Program-made: the position numbers and the translations under genes | Notes under the pieces: model-generated | What the model was told of the DNA's origin: nothing | What the model saw: the letters and a program-made list of their open reading frames with translations, nothing else | The model's database searches: none | Source of the DNA: Candidatus Saccharimonadota bacterium | GTDB lineage: Bacteria; Patescibacteriota; Saccharimonadia; Saccharimonadales; UBA4665 | DNA: 64,000 nt | Assembly (NCBI GenBank): GCA_028286405.1 | Contig: JAQBRP010000008.1 | Coordinates: 2,958 to 66,957, forward strand | Direction: 5' to 3' | In this document: piece after piece, positions 10,337 to 31,785 of the stretch | Layout of the letters: each line of letters begins with the position of its first letter | Numbering within the stretch: the stretch's first letter is position 1

Positions 10337-10360
10337 CTGAGCCTGAACCCTAAACCATGA

Positions 10361-11662: not shown

Positions 11663-11677
11663 TGATATAGTTAACCC
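11663..11677 (+). promoter_or_regulatory. extended -10 promoter directly abutting the start codon (leaderless type)
   Basis: TGaTATAGT followed by TAACCC, then the ATG at 11678. Confidence 0.5.
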
Positions 11678-12061: not shown

Positions 12062-12089
12062 CCTAGGCGGGGGTGCGGTCTCAGCAGTT

Positions 12090-12104
12090 TGCTATAGTTA
12101 ACCC
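12090..12104 (+). promoter_or_regulatory. cassette promoter TTTGCTATAGTTAACCC (leaderless type)
   Basis: TGcTATAGT plus 6 nt, then the ATG at 12105. Confidence 0.5.
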
Positions 12105-12446: not shown

Positions 12447-12519
12447 GCAGCTCATGATTATTTGGGCGTTCCTATGTTAGCCCGCGAGATACCTACAGCA
12501 GACCACTGCAACCAGGCTA

Positions 12520-13224
12520 TCACTCTGTAATTTCGCCAAAAAACTTTGTGGTGGCTATCTTACCAGAAGCGATAGCATATCTGTCTACCGGCCAGAACGG
12601 TAAAAGGCTAAGTTTTTTACCAGACTCCCTGGCATATAGCATCCATAAGAATGGATTAATACCTACCATGAACGGCACATCGCCTGGGGTGAATCCATCA
12701 GAAAATGCGGCGGCGTTTGCGACAGCGAGCACCGAAGCAGTGTAGCCCGCCCAAAATAAACTATTAATTTCTAGCGACTTCAAGGCTGCCTCAGAAAGGC
12801 CAGGTCGAATAGCCTTGTTAAGCAGTGTTGCCCTGGCACTTGGGGAGCGCACTTGGCGCACAAGGTCAGGGTACTGCTCGTCGAAGGTTGCACTATCCAT
12901 TTTTACGCTTGCCGTTTTTGCCGCTACGCCACCGCTCGACGACGCTCGCTTTTCCGCGCTTGCCGTTGAGCTGGCTGCAAGTGATCCGTCTTCATGTACG
13001 GAGCCGCTGAATATAGGCGTCAGGGAAGTGCTTGATTCACAGGTAATGCGCAGGACATCGGCGCTAATGAGACGTCTAACACCGTCTAGACCCCGTACGT
13101 TTACGCCTAGCCGCTCTTCGTCAAAGCCAACCGGCAGCCCAAGCGAGTCAATGCTAACTGTGTCAGTTAACTTAACGGCTTCTGGGAGTGCAACGAATCC
13201 TCGTGGCAGATCATGATTGGACAT
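12520..13224 (-). CDS. hypothetical membrane protein
   Basis: C-terminal hydrophobic helices. Start placed at the ATG at 13224 (TAATAT 7 nt upstream on the minus strand) rather than the TTG at 13260. Confidence 0.45.
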   Translation of the reverse strand: MSNHDLPRGFVALPEAVKLTDTVSIDSLGLPVGFDEERLGVNVRGLDGVRRLISADVLRITCESSTSLTPIFSGSVHEDGSLAASSTASAEKRASSSGGVAAKTASVKMDSATFDEQYPDLVRQVRSPSARATLLNKAIRPGLSEAALKSLEINSLFWAGYTASVLAVANAAAFSDGFTPGDVPFMVGINPFLWMLYARESGKKLSLLPFWPVDRYAIASGKIATTKFFGEITE

Positions 13225-13291
13225 TTTGCTGATATTATCGTCATTTGTACCACATTGCAAGCATGAGCACTCTGGTAGACCAATGTCTGTT

Positions 13292-13306
13292 TGCTATAGT
13301 TAGTCC
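13292..13306 (+). promoter_or_regulatory. cassette promoter TTTGCTATAGTTAGTCC (leaderless type)
   Basis: TGcTATAGT plus 6 nt, then the ATG at 13307. Confidence 0.5.
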
Positions 13307-13801
13307 ATGACAGATCGACTAAAGGCCTGGGGTGACAAGAAGATTATCCGCATAGCGTGCTGCTTCATTTTTAACGAAACAGGTGAGGTGTTACTATTGC
13401 AGCGCCATTCAGATGACCTCGGCGGTGGGAAGTGGGGAACGGCCGGTGGCCGTATTGAACATGGCGAAGAACCGAAGGCTGCAGTCATACGGGAAGTGCG
13501 TGAAGAGACAGGATTACAACTTGACGAGATTGAAGAGCTAGGCACACATGAGATTCGAATGCCACATGGGGCCGTACATATGACTAGTTTTAGGTCTATC
13601 ATCCAAGGCTCTGTTACTATCGTTATCGATCCCGAAGAGCACCACGAGTACAAATGGTTCGACATTAGTACTATAAAAACTGGTGATTATATTCTATGGG
13701 GTATCCCGACCATTCTGCACGATTTTGGACTGCTGGACGACTTTGATACCGATCCGACGTTAGCCGACGGAAGTCAGGCCGTTTTGTTGGGTTTGCTATA
13801 G
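13307..13801 (+). CDS. NUDIX hydrolase
   Basis: Nudix box G.W..AGGRIEHGEEP..AVIREVREETGL. Confidence 0.85.
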   Translation: MTDRLKAWGDKKIIRIACCFIFNETGEVLLLQRHSDDLGGGKWGTAGGRIEHGEEPKAAVIREVREETGLQLDEIEELGTHEIRMPHGAVHMTSFRSIIQGSVTIVIDPEEHHEYKWFDISTIKTGDYILWGIPTILHDFGLLDDFDTDPTLADGSQAVLLGLL

Positions 13802-13808
13802 TTAAGTT
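13794..13808 (+). promoter_or_regulatory. cassette promoter overlapping the upstream stop codon
   Basis: TGcTATAGT plus TAAGTT, then the ATG at 13809. The TAG inside TATAGT is the stop codon of the NUDIX gene. Confidence 0.5.
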
Positions 13809-14384
13809 ATGAGCAACGCAATCCTAGTCCCCGGCCGCCCAGATAAAGAAGAGCATTACGCCCCAGCCCTCCCCAGCAACAGTGAAGACCACTGGTTTAG
13901 CTGGCTCAAGCGCCAACTAATTCTAAAGGACATCCACGCAGTTTCAATAGAGCCGCCATTTCCATTCAGACCTCGATATAACGAATGGAAGAAAGAGTTT
14001 GAGCGCTTTGATATTACATCTGACACATTATTAGTTGGGCATAGCTGCGGCGGCGGATTCCTAGTACGCTACCTGAGCGAACACAAGGAATTGCAGGTTG
14101 GCAAAGTAGTGCTAGTTGCGCCTTGGATTAACCCCGACAACTACGAAGTGTCTGACACCGCCGACTTCTTCGAGTTCGACATCGACCCAGACTTTCCAAG
14201 CCGAACAAAAGGCGTATCGGTATTTATATCGAGTGACGATGATCCAAGTGTTGTTAAAACCGTCGAAATCCTAAAGGGTAAGGTGCACGATCTAGACATC
14301 CACCAGTATGCCGACAAAGGTCACTTCTGCCGAAACGATCTAGGAACCGATGAGTTCCCTGAACTACTGAGCACTTTGCTATAG
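13809..14384 (+). CDS. alpha/beta serine hydrolase (YdeN/RBBP9-like)
   Basis: ILVPG...HWFSWL start and LVGHSCGG nucleophile elbow; ~190 aa, as in YdeN-type esterases. Confidence 0.7.
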   Translation: MSNAILVPGRPDKEEHYAPALPSNSEDHWFSWLKRQLILKDIHAVSIEPPFPFRPRYNEWKKEFERFDITSDTLLVGHSCGGGFLVRYLSEHKELQVGKVVLVAPWINPDNYEVSDTADFFEFDIDPDFPSRTKGVSVFISSDDDPSVVKTVEILKGKVHDLDIHQYADKGHFCRNDLGTDEFPELLSTLL

Positions 14385-14391
14385 TTAACCC
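14377..14391 (+). promoter_or_regulatory. cassette promoter overlapping the upstream stop codon
   Basis: TGcTATAGT plus TAACCC, then the ATG at 14392. The TAG inside TATAGT terminates the hydrolase gene. Confidence 0.5.
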
Positions 14392-15270
14392 ATGAATGAA
14401 ATAGCTGTCCTCGACTACCGATTCCTGCCCGACACCAAAGCCGAAATTCAAGCGCTTGCCAGCAATGAAGTATTGTTCCCATGGGAACGCTGCCCAGAAG
14501 CCGAACGCATTACCCGCACAGGCACAGCCGACATAGCCCTCGTGACTCCCTGGGACATGATAGACACAACCTACTTAGACGCTTGCCCGCAACTCAAATA
14601 TGTTGGGCTATGCGGTACTTCCACCGCAAACATCGATTTGGACGAACTCGATCGGCGGGGCATTGCCTTTAGCAATATCGTCTCGGGCGACAAGGAGTCA
14701 GTGGCCGAGTTCTTTTTCATGCAGCTTGTAAGTCTGTCTCGAGGGCTAGGCGAATACCAGTGGAAGCCCGGCGAGCAACACGAACTCGTCGGACGCCGCA
14801 TTGGCATCATCGGTCTCGGAGCAGTCGGCAAAGCTATGGCGCACATGGCACTGGCATACAAAATGGATGTCGTTTATTTTAGCCCTCACCGTAAGCAGGA
14901 TTGGGAAGACAAAGGTATAGCGTACTTGGAAAAGAACGAGCTATTACAAACAAGCGAGATCGTTATGCTCTGCACCCCCACAAATGTCGAGGTGCTGGGC
15001 GAAGCCGAGTTTACGGCGATGAAGGCCGGAAGCATTCTCGTGCAAGCGTGTGGTGGCAATCCCTTTGATAAGCCGTCATTTTATAATTGGATAGCCCAGG
15101 ACGACAACTTCGCCCTGTTTGATATGTCAGCCAGTGAACAAAACTACCAAGCCTATCAAGATTTACCGCGAGTCATATTTTCCAGATCAGTAGCAGGTGA
15201 TACTTACGAGTCAAACGAACGCCGTGGCAAGCGAGTTGTCGAAAACTTGCACAACTACTTAAATTCATAA
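14392..15270 (+). CDS. D-isomer-specific 2-hydroxyacid dehydrogenase family protein (possibly catalytically degenerate)
   Basis: The NAD-binding motif GIIGLGAVGKAMA is present. Positions aligned with the catalytic GRG Arg and PH(I/V) His read CGG and SRSV. Confidence 0.7.
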   Translation: MNEIAVLDYRFLPDTKAEIQALASNEVLFPWERCPEAERITRTGTADIALVTPWDMIDTTYLDACPQLKYVGLCGTSTANIDLDELDRRGIAFSNIVSGDKESVAEFFFMQLVSLSRGLGEYQWKPGEQHELVGRRIGIIGLGAVGKAMAHMALAYKMDVVYFSPHRKQDWEDKGIAYLEKNELLQTSEIVMLCTPTNVEVLGEAEFTAMKAGSILVQACGGNPFDKPSFYNWIAQDDNFALFDMSASEQNYQAYQDLPRVIFSRSVAGDTYESNERRGKRVVENLHNYLNS

Positions 15271-15281
15271 TCAGACCTAGG

Positions 15282-15363
15282 AGTTACTGACCGTATTGTA
15301 GTGAGCCAAGAGGCTTATGCTTAAAAGACTTCTTCGGAAGTCTTTTTGTTATATAGTTAGCAT
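15282..15363 (+). repeat. cassette junction module J1: 35-nt motif ending GTGAGCCAAG, terminator and TATAGT promoter
   Basis: Related to 19549-19642 and 20316-20431. Terminator AAAAGACTTC-TTCG-GAAGTCTTTTT at 15323-15350; TATAGT at 15352-15357, 6 nt before the ATG at 15364. Confidence 0.7.
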
Positions 15364-15942
15364 ATGCAAACTTTCTGGCTCATCCTTGCGACGGTTGTTA
15401 CCGTTGGTTCAGTCATTCCATATGCACGCGACATCCTAAAGGGAAGTAGCCGTCCAAACATAGTATCCTGGATAACCTGGACGTTGCTTACCGGTATCGC
15501 AACAGCGGCTGCAATTAATGCTGGCGAATACACAACGGCCATATTCACTGGTTCAGCCGTGTTAGAAACGGCGATTATTGTTGTGCTGGGTTTAAGATAC
15601 GGTTATGTTAAATACACCCGCTTTGATGTTGTCTGCCAGGTGAGTGCAATTGTGGGCATCGTGTTATGGCAGCTCTTCGACTCGCCAACCGCGGGCGTAC
15701 TCGCGAGCGTCACGATTGACTTCATTGGCGCGCTACCAACGATTCGGCATTCATGGAAAATGCCCAGTGAAGAAACATGGTCCACCTACGCACTGGCAGG
15801 ACTTGGTGGAATATTTGCGATCTTCGCGTTAACATCCTACAACTGGGTCAGTCTAACTTACGCCGTTTATATCGTCATAATTAACATGCTTTTGTCGGCA
15901 ATCATTATTTACAAGATGCGATCAAGCCCCCAAATTTTCTAA
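15364..15942 (+). CDS. hypothetical polytopic membrane protein
   Basis: 192 aa with about six hydrophobic helices. Confidence 0.55.
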   Translation: MQTFWLILATVVTVGSVIPYARDILKGSSRPNIVSWITWTLLTGIATAAAINAGEYTTAIFTGSAVLETAIIVVLGLRYGYVKYTRFDVVCQVSAIVGIVLWQLFDSPTAGVLASVTIDFIGALPTIRHSWKMPSEETWSTYALAGLGGIFAIFALTSYNWVSLTYAVYIVIINMLLSAIIIYKMRSSPQIF

Positions 15943-15980
15943 GCTCGAGTAGCATTTGGTTCCAATCAATCCAATCGAGG

Positions 15981-15997
15981 GGAGCCAAGCATAAGCA
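15981..15997 (+). repeat. exact 17-nt direct repeat of the tRNA-Asn 3' end plus flank (att-like)
   Basis: GGAGCCAAGCATAAGCA is identical to 8608-8624. Confidence 0.8.
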
Positions 15998-16024
15998 TTA
16001 TGAGTAAGGGCAAAATATCTCTTT

Positions 16025-16041
16025 TGCTATAGTTAATGCAT
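16025..16041 (+). promoter_or_regulatory. cassette promoter TTTTGCTATAGTTAATGC
   Basis: TGcTATAGT upstream of the ATGs at 16036 and 16042. Confidence 0.45.
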
Positions 16042-16710
16042 ATGAGGCATTTATCGAAGAAAGCCACCTTTATACTGTCAGCTGTGCTTATTGTGGGCGG
16101 CCTAGGCATGCTAACATGGAGTGCGTTCTTACTTTTTGGGCAGCCTGGAGGAGCCCCAGCCAGCGACCAAACCACAGCGCGTGCTCCCTCAAGCCAAACC
16201 GAACCGTCCTCAATCCGGTCAAGCCCCGACGATATCTCTAACTATAAAGTCGCTTCCAGCCTACCAAAATTCATAACCATACAGTCAATTGGCGTTACAA
16301 AAACACGAATCAAACACCTAGGGCTAGCGGATAATAATCGAATTGCCGAACCGGACAATCTTTATGACACTGCCTGGTATACCGGAAGTTCTAAGCCGGG
16401 TGAGCAGGGAGCGATGTTTATTTTTGGTCACGTCTCGAGCTGGGAGGCTACTGGCATTTTTTATAATCTTAAGAACTTAAAGCCAGGAGATCGCATTACT
16501 ATTCAGCGTGGCGACGATCAGTTATTTCTCTACGAAGTAAGCTCAACTAAAACATACCCTGCCGACCAAGTAGATATGAACGCCGTGCTTGCACCCGTGA
16601 ACCCCAAAGTCCCCGGTCTTAATCTTATGACCTGTAGCGGAAAGGTTATAAAGGGAACAAACGATTTTAGTGAGCGGCTGGTAGTCTTTGCGAGCCTTGT
16701 AAAAAATTAA
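16042..16710 (+). CDS. class F-like sortase
   Basis: N-terminal TM anchor; TAWY...PGE.GA..IFGHV and LMTCSG (TLxTC-type catalytic Cys) motifs. The start could be 16036 or 16042. Confidence 0.75.
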   Translation: MRHLSKKATFILSAVLIVGGLGMLTWSAFLLFGQPGGAPASDQTTARAPSSQTEPSSIRSSPDDISNYKVASSLPKFITIQSIGVTKTRIKHLGLADNNRIAEPDNLYDTAWYTGSSKPGEQGAMFIFGHVSSWEATGIFYNLKNLKPGDRITIQRGDDQLFLYEVSSTKTYPADQVDMNAVLAPVNPKVPGLNLMTCSGKVIKGTNDFSERLVVFASLVKN

Positions 16711-16712
16711 TG

Positions 16713-17747
16713 TTAGTAGTGTTTACGCTGTTTTTTGTAAATTAGCCCCAACCCTGCGCCCATTGACACTATGCCAGTTAGCGCAATCGCCGTAGCAATG
16801 GGATCATGCTTACTAGGTGCGCCATGACCGGTTTTCGGGGCAATTATGGTTTGTCCTGCGCCACCGGATAAATTACCAGATGAATTACTGATGATATTTA
16901 GACCTCTTACGACGCCGATTTGGTGGGCCGTATTTTCTGTGAACCACATATTATTATCCGGGCCGGCGGTAATGTGAATCGGGCTGCTCATTGCAGTAGG
17001 CACACTATACTCGGTAATTGTACCGGAAGGGGTAATCTGGCCGATCTTATTACTAATGACTTCCGTGAACCAGACATTGCCGTCCGGGCCGGCGGCTATA
17101 CCGTACGGATAGCTCCCTGACGCAAGATCATACTCGGTAATCGTACCGCTCGTAGTGATTTTACCGATTTTATTGGTATCAGTCTCCGTAAACCACAGGT
17201 TGCCGTCCGGACCGGCGGTGATACCGCTTAACGAAATATTTGGACCAGGAACGAGATACTCGGTTATGGTACCTGTAGGCGTAATTTTTCCAATTTTGTT
17301 TGATACCTGCTCCGTAAACCACACGTTACCATCCGGGCCTGCTGCGAGAAAGGAGGGCAGGCTGTTTGACGTGGTGACAGTATATTCCGTAATCGTCCCG
17401 CTGGGTGTTATCTTACCAATTTTGTTAGGGATCTGCTCCGCAAACCACAGGTTGCCATCCGGGCCGGCGGTGATATTTTGTGTGCCACTAGTTGGACTAG
17501 GGATATCATATTGAGTTACCGCACCGCTGGTAGTAATCTTGCTAATCCTATTGCTATCGTTCTCTACATACCATAGGTTACCATCTGGGCCAGCAGCAAT
17601 TCCATCGGGCTCAGAAGTCGAAGACGGAAGCGTGTACTCAGATACTGTCACGGCAGCCAACACCGACGGAGCGGTGACGAAGGTGGCGAAAAGCATAGTT
17701 GCCACAAGAAAAGATCCACGTCTTATATATGCTCGTATATGACCCAT
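16713..17747 (-). CDS. secreted beta-propeller repeat protein (virginiamycin B lyase/Vgb-like repeats) with a C-terminal cell-wall sorting signal
   Basis: Signal peptide. About six tandem ~40-aa repeats (ITAGPDGNLWFTE..NKIGKITPSGTITEY). C-terminal APKTG, then a hydrophobic helix and a KKQRKHY tail. Confidence 0.7.
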   Translation of the reverse strand: MGHIRAYIRRGSFLVATMLFATFVTAPSVLAAVTVSEYTLPSSTSEPDGIAAGPDGNLWYVENDSNRISKITTSGAVTQYDIPSPTSGTQNITAGPDGNLWFAEQIPNKIGKITPSGTITEYTVTTSNSLPSFLAAGPDGNVWFTEQVSNKIGKITPTGTITEYLVPGPNISLSGITAGPDGNLWFTETDTNKIGKITTSGTITEYDLASGSYPYGIAAGPDGNVWFTEVISNKIGQITPSGTITEYSVPTAMSSPIHITAGPDNNMWFTENTAHQIGVVRGLNIISNSSGNLSGGAGQTIIAPKTGHGAPSKHDPIATAIALTGIVSMGAGLGLIYKKQRKHY

Positions 17748-17835
17748 GTCGGTTGTTTCCTTTTTAGCTTATGGTTTAAATATACTACAGTTTACTGATT
17801 CTATGTTCATATATGTCTCATCCAACCCCGTAAGC

Positions 17836-17861
17836 GGTTCGAGACCAGAAGCGGGAGCCAA
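17836..17861 (+). repeat. decayed tRNA-Asn 3'-half relic
   Basis: GGTTCGAGACCAGAAGCGGGAGCCAA compared with the tRNA sequence GGTTCGAGCCCAGCAGCCGGAGCCAA; same orientation as the tRNA. Confidence 0.65.
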
Positions 17862-20942: not shown

Positions 20943-21788
20943 ATGACAGAAGTATTCACCCAATCACACGCCGAAGACGCCATAGCGCGAACCAATGATT
21001 TCTTGCTACAAGAACGCGACACCGGACTGGATGGCGATTTTGCCAGCCAACAGGTAGCCGGACGCGTGGAATCCGTTCGGGATCGAGCACGTGACCTACT
21101 TGAGTCAGTGCCACACCCCAAACTAGATGGTCTCTATATACCGCTGAGTAAACATAATGCTGGTCGCTTCGATGAAGCTGCGACCGTATTGCCTGGCTAC
21201 CTTGTATTGGTACCCTCGGCCATGGTCGAGACTGGCACCTCGGTATTTTATCCAGCAGTAGTCAGCGAAGACGGCTTCAAGCACAATGCACTGCGCTTGC
21301 ATGTTTTAAAGCAGCCTTACCGTCAACAAGTTCGTTACGGTGCATCTGTAATACTTTCCGCTGCCGGGCAAGCTGAAACAGCGGGCATCGGTGATCACGG
21401 CCGTCAGTCTAATGACGGCGTCGAAGTTGAGCACTTTGCTACATTGCTCGCCGCCGGCAGCGATCCTGCAGTGCAACAAGCTTGGCGTTCTGGTGAGCAC
21501 GTTAATCACGCTTGGCGACAACAGCGTAGCAGCTCAGTCACGACTGAGGTATCGAATCGCTTGTTTGGTAACGATATCCCGCAAGCCACCATTACAATTT
21601 CTAAACAGCAAATCGAAGAAGGTAGCGCCATGCTACTCTGGCACCGCGGCATGCAGGACGAGCAAAGCGGCCAACCAGAATCGGCTACACAACATAACGC
21701 GCTACTGGTCGTGCAGGGGCTCGGCTTTGAAGCCCTCAGCAATGCTAACCCTCGCGGCATTGATGACATTCGGAGACTCATTGCATGA
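20943..21788 (+). CDS. hypothetical protein
   Basis: 281-aa ORF divergent from fur. TAGTGT 6 nt before the ATG. ATGA overlap with the next gene. Confidence 0.5.
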   Translation: MTEVFTQSHAEDAIARTNDFLLQERDTGLDGDFASQQVAGRVESVRDRARDLLESVPHPKLDGLYIPLSKHNAGRFDEAATVLPGYLVLVPSAMVETGTSVFYPAVVSEDGFKHNALRLHVLKQPYRQQVRYGASVILSAAGQAETAGIGDHGRQSNDGVEVEHFATLLAAGSDPAVQQAWRSGEHVNHAWRQQRSSSVTTEVSNRLFGNDIPQATITISKQQIEEGSAMLLWHRGMQDEQSGQPESATQHNALLVVQGLGFEALSNANPRGIDDIRRLIA

Positions 21789-22198
21789 AAAGCGCCGAAG
21801 CAGCCCCTGCTATGGTCGATGATGTCTTCTCACTTGAGGGCAGCTTTGACATTAATGCCGCCTTTCAAGAAGCCATGAAGGGCGTTATTAGTGACGAAGA
21901 AATAGCCCTGGAGGAAAAAGTCCGCCGCATGGAAGTCATTGTCGCGGAAGGCAGTTCTGAAACGTACCGCAACTTTGTTGACTTTAGGGCTATGGCAACA
22001 CAAATGGAAATGGCCTGCATGCACGATCACAATCTGCATGATGCGACCGATGCTAGTGAGTCACTTAGTGGCTTTCGAGATCTGCATAGTAGTGAAGACG
22101 GGCATGGTCACGGCAAGCATGACGAAGAAAATGACAAGAAGAAGGGCAAAAAGAAGAAAAAGAAGCGCGGGTGGTTCTACATTCTGCTAGACGACTAG
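21785..22198 (+). CDS. hypothetical protein with a His-rich and poly-Lys C-terminus
   Basis: 137 aa; contains HSSEDGHGHGKHDEENDKKKGKKKKKKRGW. Translationally coupled to the upstream gene. Confidence 0.5.
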   Translation: MKSAEAAPAMVDDVFSLEGSFDINAAFQEAMKGVISDEEIALEEKVRRMEVIVAEGSSETYRNFVDFRAMATQMEMACMHDHNLHDATDASESLSGFRDLHSSEDGHGHGKHDEENDKKKGKKKKKKRGWFYILLDD

Positions 22199-22202
22199 TC
22201 CT

Positions 22203-22745
22203 ATGAAATACAAAACCCTAGTAGTGTTGGTTGCCTGCGTGGCGGTTGGAGGATATTGGCTGTACGGACAATCGTACAAGCCAGTCGTTCACAACTCCGA
22301 GTTAACGCTGGCATCACTTAATTACTGTGCGGGCGAAAAGACTAAGACAGTGATTGTGAGTGTAGCCAAACGCCATCTATGGGCCTGTGAAGGCAACAAG
22401 CAACAGTACATATCACCAGTTATTACTGGCTATGTGGGCAATGCTGTCAATCTTACGCCAATTGGGACCTACGAGATTTATGCCAAGCAAACCGACCGAG
22501 ATCTCAAAGGTTCGGACAATAAGGGCAGTTGGAATGAGCACGTAGACTACTGGATGCCGTTTTTGTATAACCAGTACGGTGCCTACGGCTTTCACGATGC
22601 AGAATGGCGACAGCAGGATGATTTTGGGAAGATTAGCTCAAATAGCGTCAATGCATCGCATGGATGCGTAGAACTACCCGATAAAGCTTCTACTTGGCTC
22701 TACAAATGGAGCGAAATCGGCACCGTAGTCAAAATAGTTAACTAA
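22203..22745 (+). CDS. L,D-transpeptidase (YkuD family)
   Basis: N-terminal TM helix. YGFHD...SHGCVELP catalytic motif. Confidence 0.8.
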   Translation: MKYKTLVVLVACVAVGGYWLYGQSYKPVVHNSELTLASLNYCAGEKTKTVIVSVAKRHLWACEGNKQQYISPVITGYVGNAVNLTPIGTYEIYAKQTDRDLKGSDNKGSWNEHVDYWMPFLYNQYGAYGFHDAEWRQQDDFGKISSNSVNASHGCVELPDKASTWLYKWSEIGTVVKIVN

Positions 22746-22803
22746 GTGTCTCATTCAACTCCTTAAAATAGTTCCAGACCACTATGCTTGGTACACTAGA
22801 AGC

Positions 22804-23013
22804 ATGCAAAAAATAGCAACGCGAATATTTATCTTCGCTTCTATCACATTCGGTATTATAGGAATATTAGTAGTACTAACGGCCTCAGGTCCCGACAAGC
22901 CAGACTCCAATCTAAGCCAAATATTTATACGACTTCTTTTCATAAATGTGTTTATTATCCTGCCATCTTTTGCGCTCAGCATTGCCGGTAAGTACCTAGA
23001 CGGCAAATCGTAA
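22804..23013 (+). CDS. small hydrophobic membrane protein
   Basis: 69 aa with two predicted TM helices; AT-rich codons. Confidence 0.4.
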   Translation: MQKIATRIFIFASITFGIIGILVVLTASGPDKPDSNLSQIFIRLLFINVFIILPSFALSIAGKYLDGKS

Positions 23014-23057
23014 CTAAAAGATCCTCCAGTTCGGGGTACGCCCCAGGGGTCACATTA

Positions 23058-23085
23058 TTGACATTTCACAGTTTTATGCTAATAT
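23058..23085 (+). promoter_or_regulatory. near-consensus sigma70 promoter
   Basis: TTGACA (23058-23063), a 16-nt spacer, then TGcTAATAT (-10 at 23080-23085). Confidence 0.65.
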
Positions 23086-23124
23086 GTACTCGTCTCACCG
23101 GGGTTTAGCCCCTTGATGCACATT

Positions 23125-23136
23125 ACAGAGTAGAGA
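23125..23136. repeat. left copy of an exact 12-nt inverted repeat, ACAGAGTAGAGA
   Basis: Its reverse complement occurs at 23711-23722. Confidence 0.85.
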
Positions 23137-23137
23137 G

Positions 23138-23194
23138 ACTTTTGACAGGCAAAGAGCTTATTTAAAGAAGTAGGTTCTTTGCCTAGTCAAAAGT
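23138..23194 (+). other. long interrupted hairpin in the 5' leader of the GC-rich ORF
   Basis: ACTTTTGAC-AGGCAAAGA pairs with TCTTTGCCT-(A)-GTCAAAAGT around a ~20-nt loop. Confidence 0.6.
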
Positions 23195-23229
23195 ATTGAC
23201 TACGAGCACGGAAAGAAGGGAAGCTCACC

Positions 23230-23640
23230 ATGCACAAGATCATTCTTGTCATTGGCGAAGTCACCCGCGACCAATACCAGGAGCTCCGCATCCTGGTGCT
23301 GCACGAGGGCCACCTGCCCAAGATCGTCCGGCTCAGTGCCGACGAGTTCTTCCTCGACTCCGAGAGCCTGTGGAGGCTGTACGCGACTCCCGAGCAGAAG
23401 GAGCACGAGCTGCATCTGGCGATGCACGGTTCCACCCAGGAGGAGGACGAAGCGTCCATAGGACTCACCCAGTCGATGGCCGCGCAGCACCTCCAGGCCT
23501 ACGACGGTCTTCACTCCGTGCTGCTCGGCAGTGACGTCGTGGACCAGTACCACCCACTTGATTGGATGGGCAGCGCTCTGGCAGGACTGGACTGTCCAGT
23601 CTGGACGCTCGAGGGTGACGGCCTCCTGGTCATCGGCTGA
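23230..23640 (+). CDS. hypothetical protein, compositionally foreign (GC3-rich)
   Basis: 136-aa ORF. 34 of the first 40 codons end in G/C (hand count). AAGGGA-type RBS. ORFs of 60 aa or more are open in 5 of 6 frames here, and the frame was chosen by third-position bias. Confidence 0.6.
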   Translation: MHKIILVIGEVTRDQYQELRILVLHEGHLPKIVRLSADEFFLDSESLWRLYATPEQKEHELHLAMHGSTQEEDEASIGLTQSMAAQHLQAYDGLHSVLLGSDVVDQYHPLDWMGSALAGLDCPVWTLEGDGLLVIG

Positions 23641-23652
23641 CATGCCCTTCGT

Positions 23653-23691
23653 GGGTGACCGACAGATTGCAACTTGACCTGTCGGTCACCC
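23653..23691 (+). terminator. perfect 13-bp hairpin downstream of the GC-rich ORF (no U-tract)
   Basis: GGGTGACCGACAG, a 13-nt loop, then CTGTCGGTCACCC. It could be a terminator or a protein-binding inverted repeat. Confidence 0.45.
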
Positions 23692-23710
23692 ACCGCGCTC
23701 TCCATGCCAA

Positions 23711-23722
23711 TCTCTACTCTGT
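23711..23722. repeat. right copy of the exact 12-nt inverted repeat, TCTCTACTCTGT
   Basis: Reverse complement of 23125-23136. Confidence 0.85.
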
Positions 23723-23835
23723 CCCCAACCCAAGTTTTGATACTTTTTCAAGGTTTAGTTTGGGGTCAAAAGTTCTAAGTTCGCCCACTGCACCCTCAGG
23801 TTATCAATGAGGTAAATTCGAAGATAGGTGAGTTC

Positions 23836-24114
23836 CTAGGCTAGCGGCCACTTGCCAGTCTTCTGGCGGTGGATACAACCAGCCCAGCAGCATGGTCGGC
23901 GCTTGCCCTCGGCTAGTTCTGTGTGCGTCCGCATAACTCTGCGGTCTCTGGTTTCAAAAAGTTTGGCCGACTCCACCCAGCAAATCCATTCGTTGCGGGC
24001 CAGCGGTGTAATGTCGTTCCAGGCGGCTAGCGCTTTGGTGTCAGCGGTCAACGCTTTTCGTAAATCGGCCGGCAATTTGTGCCAGGTACCGCTAGGAATT
24101 TGTAGTTTGTTCAT
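23836..24114 (-). CDS. YdeI/OmpD-associated family protein
   Basis: 92 aa with LP.DL..AL......W....P..R.EWI.W......ETR..R pattern typical of the YdeI C-terminal domain. Confidence 0.7.
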   Translation of the reverse strand: MNKLQIPSGTWHKLPADLRKALTADTKALAAWNDITPLARNEWICWVESAKLFETRDRRVMRTHTELAEGKRRPCCWAGCIHRQKTGKWPLA

Positions 24115-24171
24115 GTGGCTACTAGTATACTTAACTTAGGCACAATATATTGCTAAGCGAGGGGAGCATGT

Positions 24172-24915
24172 ATGGCACAAACACCAGACTTTACCGGTCT
24201 CAAAGCACTCTTTATTAACTGTTCAATTAAAAAAGATAAGTCCCAGTCGCACACCCAACGACTCATGGATAAAGTGGCACATATTATGACAAGCCAGGGC
24301 GTAGCCGTGGAGCAAATCTATGCGCTTGACCACGCCATAGCCTTCGGCATGATTAAAGACGGGGCCGATGAAGGCCAAAAAGACGACTGGCCCAGCATTC
24401 AAAAAAAGATTATGGCCGCCGACATACTGGTGATTGGTACGCCAATTTGGCTGGGCGTAAAGTCGAGCGTCGCTACCCAAGTTATTGAGCGTATGTATGC
24501 CTATAGCGGTGACCGCAACGATAAAGGTCAGTACCGGTACTACGGCAAAGCTGGCGGCTGCATTATAACCGGCAACGAAGACGGCATTAAGCACTGCGCC
24601 ATGGACATTTTGTACGCTCTGCAGCACATCGGTTACATGGTGCCCCCGCAAGCCGATTGCGGCTGGATTGGCGAAGCCGGTCCCGGCCCGAGCTACGGCG
24701 ATACCGAGTGGGACGGCCAGCCAATTGGCGACGGCAAAACTCCCATGGGCTACAACAACGACTTCACCAATCGCAACGCGACCTTCATGGCCTGGAACTT
24801 AATGCACACCGCTAGCATGCTTAAAGCTAATGGCGGCATCCCGGCAGTCGGCAACACAACCGAAGATTGGGAACATGTCACCAACGCTAAGAGCGACAAC
24901 CCCGAATACCAATAG
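24172..24915 (+). CDS. flavodoxin-like NAD(P)H-dependent FMN reductase family protein
   Basis: ALFINCS...ADILVIGTPIWLG..SS....VIER motifs of the flavodoxin-fold reductases. Confidence 0.7.
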   Translation: MAQTPDFTGLKALFINCSIKKDKSQSHTQRLMDKVAHIMTSQGVAVEQIYALDHAIAFGMIKDGADEGQKDDWPSIQKKIMAADILVIGTPIWLGVKSSVATQVIERMYAYSGDRNDKGQYRYYGKAGGCIITGNEDGIKHCAMDILYALQHIGYMVPPQADCGWIGEAGPGPSYGDTEWDGQPIGDGKTPMGYNNDFTNRNATFMAWNLMHTASMLKANGGIPAVGNTTEDWEHVTNAKSDNPEYQ

Positions 24916-24978
24916 GCAGGGCTCTACTCTACCCGTCGCCTTGCGTACTAGTTAATAACTTATTGCTATACTAGCCGT

Positions 24979-27714
24979 ATGCCTAAAACAACCACACCAA
25001 ATTCCAAACCGACCGACAAACTTTTACCGCGACTGAGCCTGTTCTTTTTTGACCGCCCCTGGCTGAGCGTTTCGCTGTGGCTCGTGGTGCTAGTCTTTGG
25101 CATTCTGAGCTACACCACCTTCATGAAACGCGAAGGTTTCCCCAGCATTAATATTCCAATTGTTATTACCAGCGGCACCTACGCTCACGATGCTGCCACC
25201 GTTGACAGCCAACTAGGCAAACCAGTATCCGACATCGCTCTGAAACAAGCCGGCGTTAGTAGTGTGCTAACAACCAGCCAAGACAACTTCATGCAAACCA
25301 CCGTGCAATACGAAGAATCGGTCGACACTACCAAGGCTAAAAAAGATCTCGAAAAAGCTATCGCTGCTTCGCCGAACGTGCCAAAAGACGCCAAGTTTGA
25401 ATTTGCTGCACCATACTTTGGGGCTACTGGCGGTTCGCTCGAAAAGATTGATGCCAGCGTTTCGCTATTCGACAAAAACCAAACCCGCTCCACAGCTGAG
25501 CTTACGGAGCTAGCCGACCAAGCGGTAGTCTACTTAAACCAGCACAAGGGTGCCCAGGTGGCGAACTTCTTTGTACAGTCACCATTTACGAGTGTTAGTG
25601 ATGTCAGCGGTACTAGCACCGAGGTGCAGCGTACCTTTGATCGCTACGGTGACTCAGAACAGGGCAGGCCGACGTTTAACAACTCCGTCATCATTGGCGT
25701 CAGCGGCATTAAAAATGCCGACGTTATTGAGCTGGACGAGCAAATCCAAAAAGCGCTCGACGGCCTCGAACAGCAACCCGGCTTCAAGAATATCGACACG
25801 GCCATTAGCGCCAGCTTTGCGCCATCGATCGAGGAAAGCGTTAGCGAACTACAACGCGTACTGCTGGAAGGCTTAATTGCCGTACTTATTATTGGTGCCA
25901 TCGTGATTGCCCTCCGTGCTTCACTCATCACCGTCATCTCAATGGTTACCGTGCTGGCAATTGCCATCGGCGTGCTATTCCTGACCGGCTACTCGCTGAA
26001 TGTCATTACTTTGTTCGCCCTCATTTTGGGCCTGTCACTGATTGTGGACGACACCATTATTATGGTTGAGGCCCTTGACGCCGCCAGACGTAAACACACC
26101 ACCGCCAGAGCCGTGGTGGCCGAAGCTAGCCGCAAAGTGAGCCGGGCCATGTTGGCCGCCACGCTTACGGCCGCCTTTAGTTTTGCACCGTTGCTATTTG
26201 TATCGGGCATCCTGGGTAGCTTTATTCGAGCCATTCCAACCACCATTATTTCGTCGTTGGTGGTGAGCCTCATTGTGGCGCTCATTTTCATTCCATTGTT
26301 TGCGCGCTTTGTACTGCTCGGTAAGAAGCAACTGGGCAAAGAGGGGCACGTTGTAGAGCTCGCCGCCGGCTTCGAAGAGCGCCTGGCAAAAGCCATTGGC
26401 AAACCAATGTTGTGGTCCAAGGGCCGCCGCGCCAAGCAAGTATTAGTTGGCTTTGGAGCATTAGTGGTCAGCGCCGTGTTTATCATGGGTGCCGGCGTGC
26501 TGTTTAGCAAAGTCACCTTTAACATTTTTCCGGCCAGCAAAGATAGCAACCAAATCGCCATCGGCATTACCTACCCCAGCGGTACATCCGTGCCGGAAGC
26601 CGAAGCCATTGCCGACACCGTCGACAAAAAAGTGTCGACCATTCTGGGCAGTAATTTAGTTGATGCTTCGTACTTTGGCGCTGCCAATAATCAGCTGGCC
26701 ACCCTTACCGTGAACTTGGTTTCTTACGGTCAGCGCGACGACACCGCGCCACAGTTTGTGGAGCGCATCAACAAGCAGCTACAGGGCACCGTCGACGCCC
26801 AGGTGAAGGCCTATCAAGTCGATGTTGGCCCACCGGCTAGCGGCTTTACAGTTAACATTGCTGCCGACGATCGTGGCACTGCTACTAAGCTGGCTACTGA
26901 CCTGGCTGCTTTCCTGAAACAAGAAGACCTTAAGCGACCCAGCGGGGAAGTCGCTAAGTTTACCGATGTAACCGTCGGCAACACCGATGTCTTTCAGCGC
27001 TCCGAAGGCAAGCCTATTCTGACAGTCAGCGCCAACTTTGATGGTACCGACACCTCCACGCTAACCACCTTGGCCGAAGACGCCGTCAAAGCCAAGTTCA
27101 CCGCCGACCGCCTGCAGCAGTACGGCATGAACAGCGACGCTCTTACCTTTAATATTGGGCAGGAATCTGAAAACCAAGACTCCTTCAAGTCACTGGCCCT
27201 AGCGTTCCCGATTGTACTGCTTGCCGTCTTCTTACTGCTTGCCATCCAGTTCCGTTCGCTGCTCCAACCACTGCTAATCTTCATGGCCATTCCGTTCAGC
27301 CTGTTCGGCGTCGCCTTTGGCCTGTTCATTACCGACAATCCGATTAGCTTCTTTGCACTACTCGGCTTCTTTGCGCTCATCGGGCTGAGCCTAAAGAACA
27401 CCATTCTGCTAACCGACTTTGCCAATCAAGCTCGACGAGCCGGTATGGGGCCGATTGATGCCGCTGTCGCCGCACTTGCCGAGCGCTTCCGTCCATTAAT
27501 TGCCACCAGCCTGACGGCCATTGTGTCACTCATTCCGCTAGCCCTGACCAGCCCATTCTGGGAGGGCTTAGCCTTTACGCTGATATTCGGCCTAGCCTCG
27601 AGTACCATCCTGGTAATCTTAGTCTTCCCGTACTACTACCTCGGCGGGGAATATGTCCGTATGAAGACCCGCCAGCTGTTCCGCTGGATTCGCCGCAAAG
27701 CAACCAGAACGTAA
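24979..27714 (+). CDS. RND superfamily efflux transporter (AcrB/AcrD/AcrF-like)
   Basis: 911 aa with two blocks of ~6 TM helices separated by large extracytoplasmic domains. LSLIVDDTIIMVE motif. Confidence 0.8.
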   Translation: MPKTTTPNSKPTDKLLPRLSLFFFDRPWLSVSLWLVVLVFGILSYTTFMKREGFPSINIPIVITSGTYAHDAATVDSQLGKPVSDIALKQAGVSSVLTTSQDNFMQTTVQYEESVDTTKAKKDLEKAIAASPNVPKDAKFEFAAPYFGATGGSLEKIDASVSLFDKNQTRSTAELTELADQAVVYLNQHKGAQVANFFVQSPFTSVSDVSGTSTEVQRTFDRYGDSEQGRPTFNNSVIIGVSGIKNADVIELDEQIQKALDGLEQQPGFKNIDTAISASFAPSIEESVSELQRVLLEGLIAVLIIGAIVIALRASLITVISMVTVLAIAIGVLFLTGYSLNVITLFALILGLSLIVDDTIIMVEALDAARRKHTTARAVVAEASRKVSRAMLAATLTAAFSFAPLLFVSGILGSFIRAIPTTIISSLVVSLIVALIFIPLFARFVLLGKKQLGKEGHVVELAAGFEERLAKAIGKPMLWSKGRRAKQVLVGFGALVVSAVFIMGAGVLFSKVTFNIFPASKDSNQIAIGITYPSGTSVPEAEAIADTVDKKVSTILGSNLVDASYFGAANNQLATLTVNLVSYGQRDDTAPQFVERINKQLQGTVDAQVKAYQVDVGPPASGFTVNIAADDRGTATKLATDLAAFLKQEDLKRPSGEVAKFTDVTVGNTDVFQRSEGKPILTVSANFDGTDTSTLTTLAEDAVKAKFTADRLQQYGMNSDALTFNIGQESENQDSFKSLALAFPIVLLAVFLLLAIQFRSLLQPLLIFMAIPFSLFGVAFGLFITDNPISFFALLGFFALIGLSLKNTILLTDFANQARRAGMGPIDAAVAALAERFRPLIATSLTAIVSLIPLALTSPFWEGLAFTLIFGLASSTILVILVFPYYYLGGEYVRMKTRQLFRWIRRKATRT

Positions 27715-31737: not shown

Positions 31738-31756
31738 TTAAGCCCCGTGCTTAATT

Positions 31757-31785
31757 AAAAAGAGGCCCTCCGGGGCCTCTTTTTA
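31757..31785 (+). terminator. intrinsic terminator
   Basis: AAAAAGAGGCCC-TCCG-GGGCCTCTTTTT. Confidence 0.8.

Follow-up and report, generated by a model that had tools for sequence, protein, structure and literature searches.

What is the short GC-rich block that stands out within a 64,000-nucleotide stretch of Saccharibacteria DNA (hereafter the window), and what keeps it different from its surroundings? At its centre lies a single + strand gene (23230-23640) for an acidic alpha/beta protein of 136 amino acids with a pI of 4.7, which is listed in a Ca. Saccharibacteria MAG as hypothetical. A preliminary description, made from the letters alone, had guessed a Saccharibacteria-like organism, which is correct; the sequence features that it listed were all re-found in place, one hairpin stem being longer than reported. 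Sliding GC content (300 nt) reaches its maximum of 0.63 over the block, compared with about 0.41-0.48 in the immediate flanks, so that the expected compositional peak is real.

The coding sequence is GC3-rich and strongly structured. Its GC content is 0.62, with values of 0.71, 0.34 and 0.82 at the three codon positions; as GC2 is low, the compositional bias sits at synonymous sites. This GC3 is the highest among window ORFs of at least 120 amino acids (the others span 0.41-0.70), and the antisense shadow of the gene reaches 0.71. The earlier counts hold: 34 of the first 40 codons end in G or C, and ORFs of at least 60 amino acids are open in five of six frames. The neighbouring genes had been said to favour A/T-ending codons, which is true of the small membrane-protein gene but not of typical window genes, whose GC3 is 0.5-0.65. 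The ORFs examined as codon-usage reference encode response regulators, methyltransferases and similar proteins, but neither ribosomal proteins nor EF-Tu. An assembly chimera was considered as the source of the block and ruled out: across positions 22136-25211, the same sequence is found in an independent Logan assembly of SRR13312974.

Such composition had been read as a sign of host-to-epibiont transfer, that is, of recent import from a high-GC actinobacterial donor with no time for amelioration. The gene does hold the GC3 extreme of the window, high-GC coding DNA typically shows the order GC1 > GC2 < GC3 seen here, and the neighbourhood is one of variable accessory genes. Its 3' hairpin has no U-tract, a lack often ascribed to actinobacterial terminators. 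The distribution of relatives argues against such an origin. An exhaustive HMMER search (phmmer) of 1.84 billion representative proteins returned about 28 relatives of 111-153 amino acids, 26-47% identical to the query and sharing a conserved histidine and the N-terminal motif ILVIGxVTxxQYQxxRLxxLRxGHxPKIVR. A word-index protein search gave back the query alone, and the family profile six proteins. No homologue was found beyond small proteins on Saccharimonadales-type contigs in searches of 5.8 billion and 1.84 billion proteins, and plasmid and phage collections hold neither a protein nor a DNA match to the gene. Most contigs with relatives bear no taxonomic label; all those that can be placed belong to Saccharimonadales/Patescibacteria. 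Among them, L012 is a Saccharimonadales MAG, and for the TyrRS encoded on L005 the nearest named relatives belong to the same groups. As far as its contigs can be placed, the family is uncharacterised and confined to Saccharimonadales.

We compared 13 phylogenetically related loci, including the window. In all 13, the GC3 of the family gene exceeds the median of its neighbours, by 0.06 to 0.36, in hosts with a GC content of 0.43-0.56. Third codon positions are only 36-55% identical between members, which amounts to saturation. Since GC3 is high in spite of this, the bias must be maintained and is no residue of recent import. Moreover, the promoter and UTRs that are conserved along with the gene are AT-richer than the coding sequence (GC of 0.45 for the 5' UTR). 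We conclude from these alignments that high GC3 is a maintained trait of the whole gene family, and import from Actinobacteria is very improbable. Compositional islands are usually taken as horizontal transfer; this one is a maintained, gene-specific trait, and selection on the mRNA, for structure or stability, would account for it in place of actinobacterial ancestry. An antisense overlapping gene was rejected as the reason for high GC3: the 147-amino-acid antisense ORF is interrupted in 8 of the 13 loci. In a synonymous-shuffle control, antisense stops depended solely on the choice of Leu and Ser codons.

The protein itself is of no recognised family, as first supposed: Pfam, NCBIfam, PHROG and PADLOC contain no match to it. 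Its description as acidic and His-rich stands for the window copy, which has nine histidines; relatives have one to six, and His-richness is not a family trait. A profile search of PDB with the protein gave no sequence match. AlphaFold2 yields a confident model from the family alignment (pLDDT 96.4, versus 41 from the single sequence), for which Foldseek detects no significant structural neighbour, resolvases and HUH proteins included; the best TM-score, about 0.37, is to generic Rossmann-like folds. A likeness of the N-terminal motif to the RVST..Q of serine recombinases was dropped, given this confident model with no resolvase neighbour and no sequence match in PDB.

The flanks of the gene outdo the protein in conservation: DNA identity is 61-83% in the 5' UTR and 49-60% in the coding sequence, compared with 26-46% for the protein. 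UTR profiles, scanned over some 170 kb, match solely beside family genes. A profile search with a sub-alignment of the family hit one genome locus and no viral contigs. The leader motif TGCCTRGTCAAAAGTNTTGRC has seven matches in metagenome contigs, all by chance within unrelated genes, and none in viral contigs.

Transcription would begin at a sigma-70-type promoter (23058-23085, +), formed by TTGACA, a 16-nt spacer and a TG-extended TAATAT. It matches the consensus at 10 of 12 positions in addition to the TG extension. As noticed early on, it is nearly consensus; it is also the top promoter-like site in 4 kb. An equivalent promoter is present in 12 of the 13 loci: a pattern scan identified it in ten, visual inspection in L003 and L005; L010 has a weaker candidate -10 box alone (TAGAAT). 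The transcription start is predicted at about 23092. There the transcript fold places hairpin P1 (23092-23119, +), with a GGGG-UUUA-CCCC core and an outer tier. All 11 loci that carry the repeat arms described below have an equivalent two-tier hairpin, which begins a few nucleotides from the predicted start and has a dG of -6 to -11.5 kcal/mol.

The long leader hairpin that had been pointed out, P2 (23138-23194, +), is supported by RNAalifold and by pair counts. Its inner stem (23147-23184) comprises 16 pairs, 10 of them with double changes, and is 92% paired; none of 500 shuffles matches it. The outer stem, ACTTTTGAC/GTCAAAAGT, is 80% paired in the alignment and is missing from the short-leader variants L008, L013 and L027. 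The small hairpin P2b, GTCAA-AAGTA-TTGAC (23186-23200, +), covaries as well: four of its five pairs show double changes, and 98% of its cells are paired. P2b and the outer stem of P2 exclude each other, so that the two may form a switch. Just 5' of the ATG, conserved alignment columns mark a purine-rich Shine-Dalgarno region, GGAAAGAAGGGAAG, followed by AGCTCACC (23210-23229, +). The 3' arm of the leader hairpin was reported to recur downstream. GTCAAAAGT indeed occurs at 23186 and 23765, and has an additional copy at 58603. Pairing of the second copy (23765) with 23138-23146 was rejected, as it would cross the helix described next; this copy is better placed in the right boundary region.

The 12-nt repeats of the block are exact reverse complements, as claimed: ACAGAGTAGAGA, with a conserved GCACATT box just before it, at 23125-23136, and TCTCTACTCTGT at 23711-23722 (both on the + strand). 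Each arm is unique in the window. Exact 12-nt inverted repeats with arms 100-1000 nt apart number nine pairs in the window, compared with about 2.5 in shuffles. Such repeats are therefore not unusual alone, and acquire significance only through comparison with other loci.

That comparison speaks for base pairing between the two UTRs. The repeat is kept in 11 of the 13 loci, and in these the arms form the longest possible helix between 5' and 3' UTR, of 11-14 bp (12 bp and perfect in the window). Compensatory double changes affect 8 of 15 pairs, a result matched by none of 500 shuffles, and L018 carries three compensated substitutions. In the alignment 86% of cells are paired, falling to 33-51% when the register is slid. 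Both arms are missing from L010, which has a T-run terminator in their stead: the T-run is borne by its equivalent of the 3' hairpin. In L012, the ACAGAGTAC box is paired with a local upstream partner, GTACTCTG. The arms lie inside the predicted transcription unit, between promoter and terminators: wherever a canonical terminator can be seen (L003 and L013), it is downstream of the 3' arm, and in the window no + strand terminator is found within 23085-23929. Of the three readings first offered for the repeats, pairing of the transcript ends around a loop of ~575 nt is thus the one that holds, the helix covarying within the predicted transcript and appearing in its minimum-free-energy (MFE) fold.

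The other two readings place the function of the repeats in DNA, as terminal inverted repeats of an IS200- or MITE-like insertion or as crossover sites of an invertible segment. Co-varying inverted repeats would also be expected if one protein recognised both ends, the genomic context does vary among genomes, and the unit recalls IS200 in outline, being ~0.7 kb long with a single small ORF and with hairpins close to both ends. Conservation, however, runs past both arms: the promoter, P1 and a GYACWTY box are conserved on their 5' side and another hairpin, P4, on their 3' side, and the true edges of the unit are tRNA-like direct repeats. The promoter lies outside the arms, yet is fixed in position. 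The protein has no transposase or recombinase match by sequence or fold, and the gene is single-copy in each genome fragment examined. As for inversion, the antisense ORF that it would place behind the promoter is the one broken in 8 of 13 loci, and one orientation is found at every locus, five independent contigs of one relative included. The exchange of a distal partner for a local one in L012 suits base pairing, not protein-bound termini.

Mismatch types give a further indication. Over the helices, G·U cells outnumber A·C cells by 55 to 26 (p=0.002), and in the leader by 22 to 4, an excess which points to pairing at the level of RNA rather than DNA. In the closing helix alone, the 12 core pairs show two G·U cells and one A·C cell, the sole internal non-Watson-Crick cell being G·U; these are so few that constraints on the arms at the DNA level are formally possible. 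Taken with the RNA-type G·U excess of the neighbouring helices, a DNA-level role of the repeats appears improbable.

Downstream of the gene, a hairpin with no U-tract had been described with a 13-bp stem. There is no T-run, as stated, but the stem of this hairpin, P3 (23651-23693, +), is a perfect, GC-rich one of 15 bp. Seven of its ten consensus pairs show double changes, and it is no canonical terminator. Directly 3' of the 3' arm, covariation also supports P4 (23723-23765, +), an AU-rich two-tier hairpin in which 7 of 16 consensus pairs carry double changes, including TTGAA/TTCAA swaps. It is found in the window and in L005, L006, L008, L018, L019, L027 and L028, and is missing in L002 and L003. 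A segment right after the stop codon that could act as an anti-Shine-Dalgarno (CCCTTC in the window) was discarded: on inspection, it is not kept in relatives.

Folded as a whole, the predicted transcript has an MFE of -305.5 kcal/mol, to be compared with -244.8 for shuffles (z=-7.5), and its MFE structure includes P1, both arms, P2, P3 and P4. With 30 synonymous permutations per gene and one control gene per locus, the coding sequences fold with a mean z of -1.49 (negative in 11 of 13), and neighbouring genes with +0.31. The excess is modest, z being near 0 in three of 13 members. Could the flanks and the GC-rich body be a functional structured RNA, of dual function or an RNA partner of the protein, in which coding is secondary? 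The whole-transcript z, UTRs that outrank the protein in conservation and a coding sequence folded beyond its synonymous permutations would all agree with this. Strong three-base periodicity, a conserved protein alignment and a model with a pLDDT of 96, on the other hand, reveal real coding selection, and conserved long-range pairs within the coding sequence are not demonstrated. Rfam offers no family match either: in the window it recognises four tRNAs only, and at 22950-23850 sub-threshold miRNA-hairpin noise. We hold a primarily RNA-based function to be quite improbable.

Long-range helices between the flanks of an RNA also form the processing stalks of rRNA precursors, in which 16S and 23S are enclosed by paired 5' and 3' flanks. 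The likeness lies in a whole RNA body, of ~0.5-3 kb, being looped out by its flanks; here, in contrast, the helix encloses a protein-coding ORF, is only 12-14 bp long, and cleavage is not evident. Pairing of 5' and 3' UTR within one bacterial mRNA has essentially one well-studied case, icaR of Staphylococcus aureus. In this mRNA, a UCCCCUG anti-Shine-Dalgarno motif of the 3' UTR was shown by experiment to pair with the Shine-Dalgarno sequence (Ruiz de los Mozos et al. 2013, PMC3868564). The pairing prevents initiation and gives rise to an RNase III site, and its authors called it "a singular example" (PMC3868564). Both systems have complementary 5' and 3' UTR segments in one transcript, and in short-leader variants of our family the helix likewise reaches the Shine-Dalgarno region. 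They differ in that the arms studied here are not anti-Shine-Dalgarno sequences and lie mostly about 90 nt 5' of the start, in the conserved hairpins P1, P2, P3 and P4 that are added, and in the kind of support: covariation over a gene family here, experiment for icaR.

The precedent raises the question of whether the helix has a role in negative regulation or in processing, serving as a substrate of double-strand-specific RNase, as a brake on initiation, or as both, with the P2/P2b switch controlling access. In L008, L013 and L027, 10-11 nt separate the end of the 5' arm from the ATG, and the arm overlaps or adjoins the Shine-Dalgarno sequence GGAGG/GGAAG; the outer stem of P2 and P2b, mutually exclusive, are also each supported. 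Yet in 8 of the 11 arm-bearing loci, namely the window and seven further long-leader loci, the helix is 88-97 nt 5' of the start codon, where it cannot cover the site of ribosome binding, and the arm has no anti-Shine-Dalgarno motif to begin with. A helix of 12-14 bp is short for canonical RNase III. Finally, to judge from its near-consensus promoter and its end hairpins, the transcript looks designed to be highly expressed and to persist. A purely negative role is accordingly rather unlikely, though it retains appreciable weight.

The reading that we favour, and consider reasonably likely, is that of a self-contained single-gene cassette restricted to Saccharimonadales and equipped with a dedicated RNA scaffold, including the helix that closes 5' end on 3' end. 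The mRNA would comprise, in order, the promoter-proximal P1, the UTR-UTR helix, P2 with the competing P2b, the gene, P3, and P4 outside the closing helix. The UTR-UTR helix would close the ORF into a loop of about 575 nt. With both ends sequestered, such a compact mRNA could withstand decay that depends on the 5' end as well as decay by 3' exonucleases, and the landing site of the cassette would not influence its expression. In short-leader variants, the closing helix abutting the Shine-Dalgarno sequence may also hold back translation, as in icaR. On this model the mRNA is portable, heavily structured and probably long-lived; its ends, half-life and pairing in vivo are what we infer from sequence. 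A stabilising role of the closing helix is a guess: a cleavage site for double-strand-specific RNase or a translational repressor would be equally possible.

The principle known from icaR thus recurs as a conserved, covarying UTR-UTR architecture dedicated to one gene family of the candidate phyla radiation, combined with terminal hairpins and a coding sequence that stays GC-rich and folded against its genomic surroundings. Should the helix stabilise or gate the message, this would be a natural, compact and portable expression module, and a test case for the control of mRNA lifetime in ultra-small epibiotic bacteria.

The term cassette is suggested by the boundaries of the unit. In L008, L027, L006 and L012, tRNA-3'-end-like direct repeats bracket it. 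In L008 and L012 the unit is immediately 3' of a tRNA (tRNA-Gln in L012); GGGGCACCACTATTGACAAA is repeated in L008, a tRNA-Gln end is duplicated in L006 (79 nt, 97% identical), and L027 has 40-nt repeats on both flanks. The junction ...ACCA-CTATTGACA is identical in L008 and L027. A profile built from the boundary repeats of these two loci, which also matches the genuine tRNA 3' end in L008, finds diverged forms in the window. On the left, its second-best window match is 23027-23066 (E=0.03), containing the motif AGTTCGGGGTACGCCCCAGGGGTCACA (23027-23056, +), 1-2 nt 5' of the -35 box. This motif also resembles the 3' end of the window's own tRNA-Glu, CGCAGGGGTCACCA. On the right, the motif AAGTTCTAAGTTCGCCCACTGCACCCTCAGG (23768-23800, +) contains the third-best match, on the same strand at 23768-23788; with E=1.2 it is weak alone, and its position is that of the clear copies in L006, L008 and L027. 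The interval 23027-23800 would then be a tRNA-repeat-flanked unit, mobile if genomic context is a guide.

This context is variable. Genes flanking the cassette are different in every genome; in the window they are YkuD, a small membrane protein, OmdA and FMN reductase. The accessory cargo of the neighbourhood includes NUDIX, GNAT, APH, glyoxalase and methyltransferase genes. In L006, L008 and L027 a repeat follows almost every gene, the units of the array being 0.6-0.8 kb long with one gene each. Such single-gene units behind tRNA genes, with tRNA-3'-end-like repeats between them, hint at cassette-based plasticity in Saccharimonadales, a mechanism of which we found no published description. 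A recombinase encoded elsewhere, acting site-specifically on the tRNA-like repeats, would move the cassette or would once have done so. No integrase or mobility gene is found among the called genes of the loci, on contigs that are short, or among the window ORFs tested. The neighbours of the module and the tested island ORFs have no recombinase domain, some ORFs matching no family at all.

Three known systems offer a comparison. In Prochlorococcus tycheposons, variable genes gather beside tRNA genes in units bordered by complete and partial tRNA 3' ends, and successive integrations drive older units deeper into the island (Hackl et al., bioRxiv 10.1101/2020.12.28.424599). The Saccharimonadales units share direct repeats resembling a tRNA 3' end and a position next to an intact tRNA. 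They are in turn tiny (0.6-0.8 kb), no tyrosine recombinase or hallmark gene is found in any locus, and their mobility is what we infer. Integron cassettes resemble them as arrays of single genes with a repeated site after each and accessory cargo nearby, but the boundary repeats here are direct, tRNA-3'-like and non-palindromic, with no attC R''/L''-L'/R' boxes, and intI is not found; the cassette also brings a strong promoter of its own, which integron cassettes usually lack. Elements of the IS200 type (IS200/IS605) are similar in size (~0.7 kb), in their one ORF of ~140 amino acids and in having hairpins near both ends, one of them in the leader. Unlike them, the cassette is single-copy, ends in direct tRNA-like repeats, has hairpins that tolerate G·U as RNA does, and encodes a protein that matches no Y1/HUH transposase model or fold.

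More speculatively, two linked novelties could meet here: a tRNA-anchored system of single-gene capture and a portable closed-loop mRNA. The first would be integron- or tycheposon-like, with a tRNA-3'-end-like repeat after each cassette and an unlinked recombinase serving the array; the second would join promoter, 5' cap-hairpin, closing helix and a folded GC-rich coding sequence into a chassis for long-lived, context-independent expression in an ultra-small cell. We regard this combination as possible rather than probable. Actinobacterial-type codons on an armoured mRNA could even indicate a message or gene meant for the high-GC host of the epibiont, an idea that none of the tests supports.

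The window contains a tRNA-Asn island of its own. No integrase is recognisable in it, and its 414-amino-acid, low-GC ORF at 10361-11605 has no Pfam match. The tRNA-Asn end is repeated at 9718 and 17831.

The ORF that the preliminary description placed at 23230-23640 is present; its 136-aa product carries the annotation "hypothetical protein" in a Candidatus Saccharibacteria MAG. It was said to match no known family, and Pfam, NCBIfam, PHROGs and PADLOC indeed gave no match. In a word-indexed search, the query itself was the sole match among 5.8 billion proteins; phmmer, run exhaustively against 1.84 billion cluster representatives, recovered 28 relatives. Nearly all of them are 111-153 aa long, with 26-47% identity. 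Shared features are the motif ILVIGxVTxxQYQxxRLxxLRxGHxPKIVR at the N-terminus and a conserved His. This establishes a real gene, one of a small family specific to the lineage. The family is acidic (median pI 5.0), as was claimed of the protein; the histidine richness noted with it is peculiar to the window copy.

Using the 28-sequence alignment, AlphaFold2 produced a very confident alpha/beta model of the protein (pLDDT 96.4, pTM 0.86). Foldseek found no significant neighbour in the PDB or BFVD, the best TM-score being ~0.37 to generic Rossmann-like folds, and a family profile search of PDB sequences gave no match. A serine-recombinase-like N-terminus was considered and dropped, since neither search provided a neighbour to support it.

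The gene stands out in composition: its GC content is 0.62, against 0.517 for the whole window, with GC1, GC2 and GC3 of 0.71, 0.34 and 0.82. As GC2 is low, the bias lies at synonymous sites. No other ORF of at least 120 aa in the 64 kb exceeds a GC3 of 0.70, barring its own antisense shadow (0.71). Windowed GC peaks at 0.63 over the ORF and is 0.41-0.48 in the flanks; of the first 40 codons, 34 have G or C in third position, and ORFs of at least 60 aa are open in five of six frames across the block, all as described. The contrast drawn with neighbouring genes preferring A/T-ending codons did not hold as a general rule, because most genes in the window have a GC3 of 0.5-0.65. A Logan assembly of SRR13312974, which sampled the source community, is identical to window positions 22136-25211 (zero mismatches), so the GC-rich block is no binning or assembly artefact.

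This composition had been attributed to host-to-epibiont transfer from Actinobacteria. We compared 13 loci: the window and 12 further distinct relatives with genomic context retrieved. The placeable contigs carrying the gene belong to Saccharimonadales/Patescibacteria; locus L012 is from a Saccharimonadales MAG, and the named proteins closest to the TyrRS encoded on L005 come from the Saccharimonadales and Patescibacteria group. Plasmid and phage records gave no relative at protein or DNA level. In 13/13 loci the GC3 of the family gene (0.57-0.90) is above the median of its neighbours (0.33-0.67), and members share just 36-55% identity at aligned third codon positions, which amounts to saturation. 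The UTRs travelling with the gene are AT-richer (GC of 0.45 for the window 5' UTR). Because the bias persists in every lineage despite saturation, is limited to the CDS and is missing from neighbouring cassettes, high GC3 is a maintained property of the gene and no trace of recent transfer; an actinobacterial import is not supported.

The flanks are better conserved than the protein. Relative to the window, identity is 61-83% in the 5' UTR and 50-73% in the 3' UTR, as compared with 49-60% for CDS DNA and 26-46% for protein. In ~170 kb searched, nhmmer profiles of both UTRs matched solely beside family genes; Rfam contained no family matching the module. What is conserved is, judging by its covariation, RNA structure.

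Central to this structure is the exact 12-nt inverted repeat found at 23125-23136 and 23711-23722. Nine such repeats with arms 100-1000 nt apart occur in the window versus ~2.5 in shuffled sequence; taken without comparative evidence, this one is therefore unremarkable. However, in 11 of the 13 loci its homologue is the longest possible helix between the 5' and 3' UTRs (11-14 bp). In an anchored alignment of this closing helix 86% of cells are paired, pairing falls to 33-51% when the register is slid, and 8 of 15 pairs carry changes on both sides, a covariation matched by none of 500 column shuffles. Compensated changes include G>A with C>T in L002 and L019, G>T with C>A in L006 and A>G with T>C in L013; all three substitutions in L018 are compensated. 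L010 lacks both arms together, and its 3' hairpin has a T-run terminator. In L012 the ACAGAGTAC box pairs with a GTACTCTG that lies a short way upstream, at the transcript 5' end: such a swap of a distal for a local partner fits base-pairing and is unfit for protein-bound termini. The first of three proposed readings of the repeat, pairing of the transcript ends to close a loop, is supported. In L003, an additional 3'-arm box, GTACTCTGT, directly follows the stop codon (6406-6420), ~78 nt upstream of the regular 3' arm; it could be an alternative partner for the 5' arm.

Other helices covary as well. P1 (23092-23119), a two-tier hairpin starting from the predicted 5' end, is present in 11/11 arm-bearing loci. 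The interrupted leader hairpin P2 was found where described (23138-23194); 10 of the 16 pairs of its inner stem show double changes (92% paired), as do 4 of the 5 pairs of P2b (GTCAA-AAGTA-TTGAC, 23186-23200; 98% paired). The outer part of P2 competes with P2b; it is 80% paired in the alignment and, by inspection, covaries in L018 and L028. Double changes affect 7 of 10 pairs in the 3' hairpin P3 (23651-23693) and 7 of 16 in the AU-rich P4 that follows the 3' arm (23723-23765). P3 is perfect and devoid of a T-run, as reported; its stem has 15 bp, two more than claimed.

Over the helices as a whole there are 55 G·U cells and 26 A·C cells (binomial p=0.002); in the leader alone the counts are 22 and 4. 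The helices thereby appear to act as RNA read from the + strand, although in the closing helix alone, whose one internal non-Watson-Crick cell is a G·U, this test is powerless. The two remaining readings of the repeat operate at the DNA level: terminal inverted repeats of an insertion, or an invertible segment placing a 147-aa antisense ORF behind the promoter. Both are disfavoured by the G·U excess, by the local partner in L012 and by the tRNA-like direct repeats at the unit boundaries; the invertible segment is disfavoured also by the antisense ORF itself, which is broken in 8 of 13 members and is a by-product of missing TTA, CTA and TCA codons. Canonical terminators, where visible (L003, L013), lie downstream of the 3' arm; no terminator-like site was seen on the window + strand at 23085-23929.

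The minimum free energy fold of the predicted 709-nt transcript includes P1, the 12-bp closing helix, P2, P3 and P4. Its energy is -305.5 kcal/mol versus -244.8 for dinucleotide shuffles (z=-7.5, 20 shuffles). Per nucleotide, the CDSs fold at -0.31 to -0.43 kcal/mol, neighbouring genes at -0.19 to -0.30. Against their own synonymous-codon permutations the CDSs are more stable, with a mean z of -1.49 (11/13 negative) versus +0.31 for neighbours.

Transcription would start from the promoter described as TTGACA-16 nt-TGcTAATAT, confirmed at 23058-23085: with 10/12 matches and the TG extension, it is the top sigma-70-like site in a 4-kb scan. A near-consensus equivalent (TTGACA or TTGATA, 16-17 nt, TGnTAnAAT) precedes the gene in 12/13 loci, L010 having a weaker candidate only. 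Leaders come in two discrete sizes, 131-144 or 53-55 nt. From P2b to the start codon (23201-23229 in the window) they are conserved past the needs of a Shine-Dalgarno sequence (CTACGAGCA...GGAAGG...AGCTCACC-ATG), and so is the P2 3' strand, TTGCCTAGTCAAAAGTATTGAC. The near-invariance of both stretches, although the proteins are 30-46% identical, suggests sequence-specific contact with a protein or the ribosome; strong conservation of TTGCCTAGTCAAAAGTATTGACTACGAGCA in the leader likewise suggests protein or ribosome contact.

Sequence comparison of 13 loci, a small number, establishes the architecture of the module and its evolutionary conservation. We propose that the transcript folds to a compact body in which P1 caps the 5' end, the two UTRs are clamped together and P4 stacks outside the clamp. 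With both ends hidden in this way, the mRNA would escape decay that depends on the 5' end or on 3' exonucleases. Together with a strong promoter and a folded CDS rich in GC, this would make a long-lived unit whose expression does not depend on the insertion site of the cassette. The main rival is an inhibitory clamp, as in icaR, where pairing of the 3' UTR with the Shine-Dalgarno sequence blocks initiation and makes an RNase III substrate (PMC3868564). The three loci with short leaders speak for this rival, as their clamp abuts the Shine-Dalgarno sequence; the eight long-leader loci, with the clamp 88-97 nt upstream of the start codon, speak against it. Because P2b and the outer part of P2 exclude each other, a further switch may operate in the leader. 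Intramolecular 5'UTR-3'UTR pairing is rarely documented in bacterial mRNA, and the covariation supports the present case as a new variant. It comes with an uncharacterised Saccharimonadales protein family, inside cassette-like tRNA-anchored arrays of putative mobility.

The genes flanking the module are different in every genome. In the window it lies between the genes for YkuD and a small membrane protein and those for OmdA and an FMN reductase; other loci have RpfB-KsgA/GNAT, GT2/APH, NUDIX/RecG and further neighbours. In L008 the unit begins directly 3' of a tRNA gene, and GGGGCACCACTATTGACAAA is repeated after it. It follows tRNA-Gln in L012, and in L006 it lies within a run of small ORFs behind tRNA-Gln; there, the last 79 nt of tRNA and trailer recur right after the unit (97% identity), with shorter copies after most small genes. 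In L027, a ~35-nt motif, AAGTTCGARGTACGYCCAMCAAGGGGYACCA, stands directly before the promoter, again after P4, and also behind neighbouring genes. A profile of the L008 and L027 boundary copies picks out the true 3' end of the L008 tRNA. Its matches in the 64-kb window are all on the + strand, at 9164-9199 (E=1e-4), 23027-23066 (E=0.03) and 23768-23788 (E=1.2); the latter two bracket the module exactly, and the unit therefore spans ~23027-23800.

The match at 9164-9199 comes right after a 133-aa ORF without family match. Partial repeats of the 3' end of tRNA-Asn (8540-8614) occur at 9718-9747 (17 nt exact) and 17831-17860 (23/30). Accessory genes (AHSA1-like, NUDIX, serine hydrolase, 2-hydroxyacid dehydrogenase, sortase, Vgb lyase) fill 8540-17860, which looks like a tRNA-anchored island of several units. 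Tycheposons (10.1101/2020.12.28.424599) are also tRNA-anchored islands with partial-tRNA repeats; a difference is that neither the loci nor those window ORFs that were tested yielded an integrase. Inside the island, a 414-aa ORF (10361-11605, - strand) has unusually low GC and GC3 (both 0.41); considered as an integrase, it was rejected, having no Pfam match and no recognisable recombinase domain. A second att-like partial repeat in the window involves tRNA-Glu (56964-57040, - strand), whose last 16 nt recur at 56826-56855.

Runs of small, mostly unannotated genes behind tRNA genes were seen in L006 (4990-12000), L008 (1-4200) and L027 (800-2000), with a 30-40-nt tRNA-3'-end-like direct repeat after nearly every gene. 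L006 and L012 carry a repeat of tRNA-Gln type; that of L008, L027 and the window is tRNA-Arg-like. In several cases CTATTGACA, the -35 box belonging to the unit downstream, comes immediately after the copy. Saccharimonadales genomes in general may be punctuated by repeats in this array-like way.

Two further observations concern the window. A 137-aa ORF (21785-22198), acidic towards its N-terminus and rich in His and Lys in its tail (...HGHGKHDEENDKKKGKKKKKKRGW...), is translationally coupled to an upstream 281-aa ORF, and 4 nt separate it from the YkuD L,D-transpeptidase gene that follows; it has no family match in Pfam, NCBIfam, PHROGs or PADLOC. Finally, the strongest local inverted repeats of the window are four perfect hairpins (9583-9621, 10171-10211, 31756-31785 and 40857-40894) of 13-20 bp with 1-4-nt loops and A-rich 5' arms (e.g. 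CAAATGAAAAAGGCCTAGCA), probably bidirectional intrinsic terminators.
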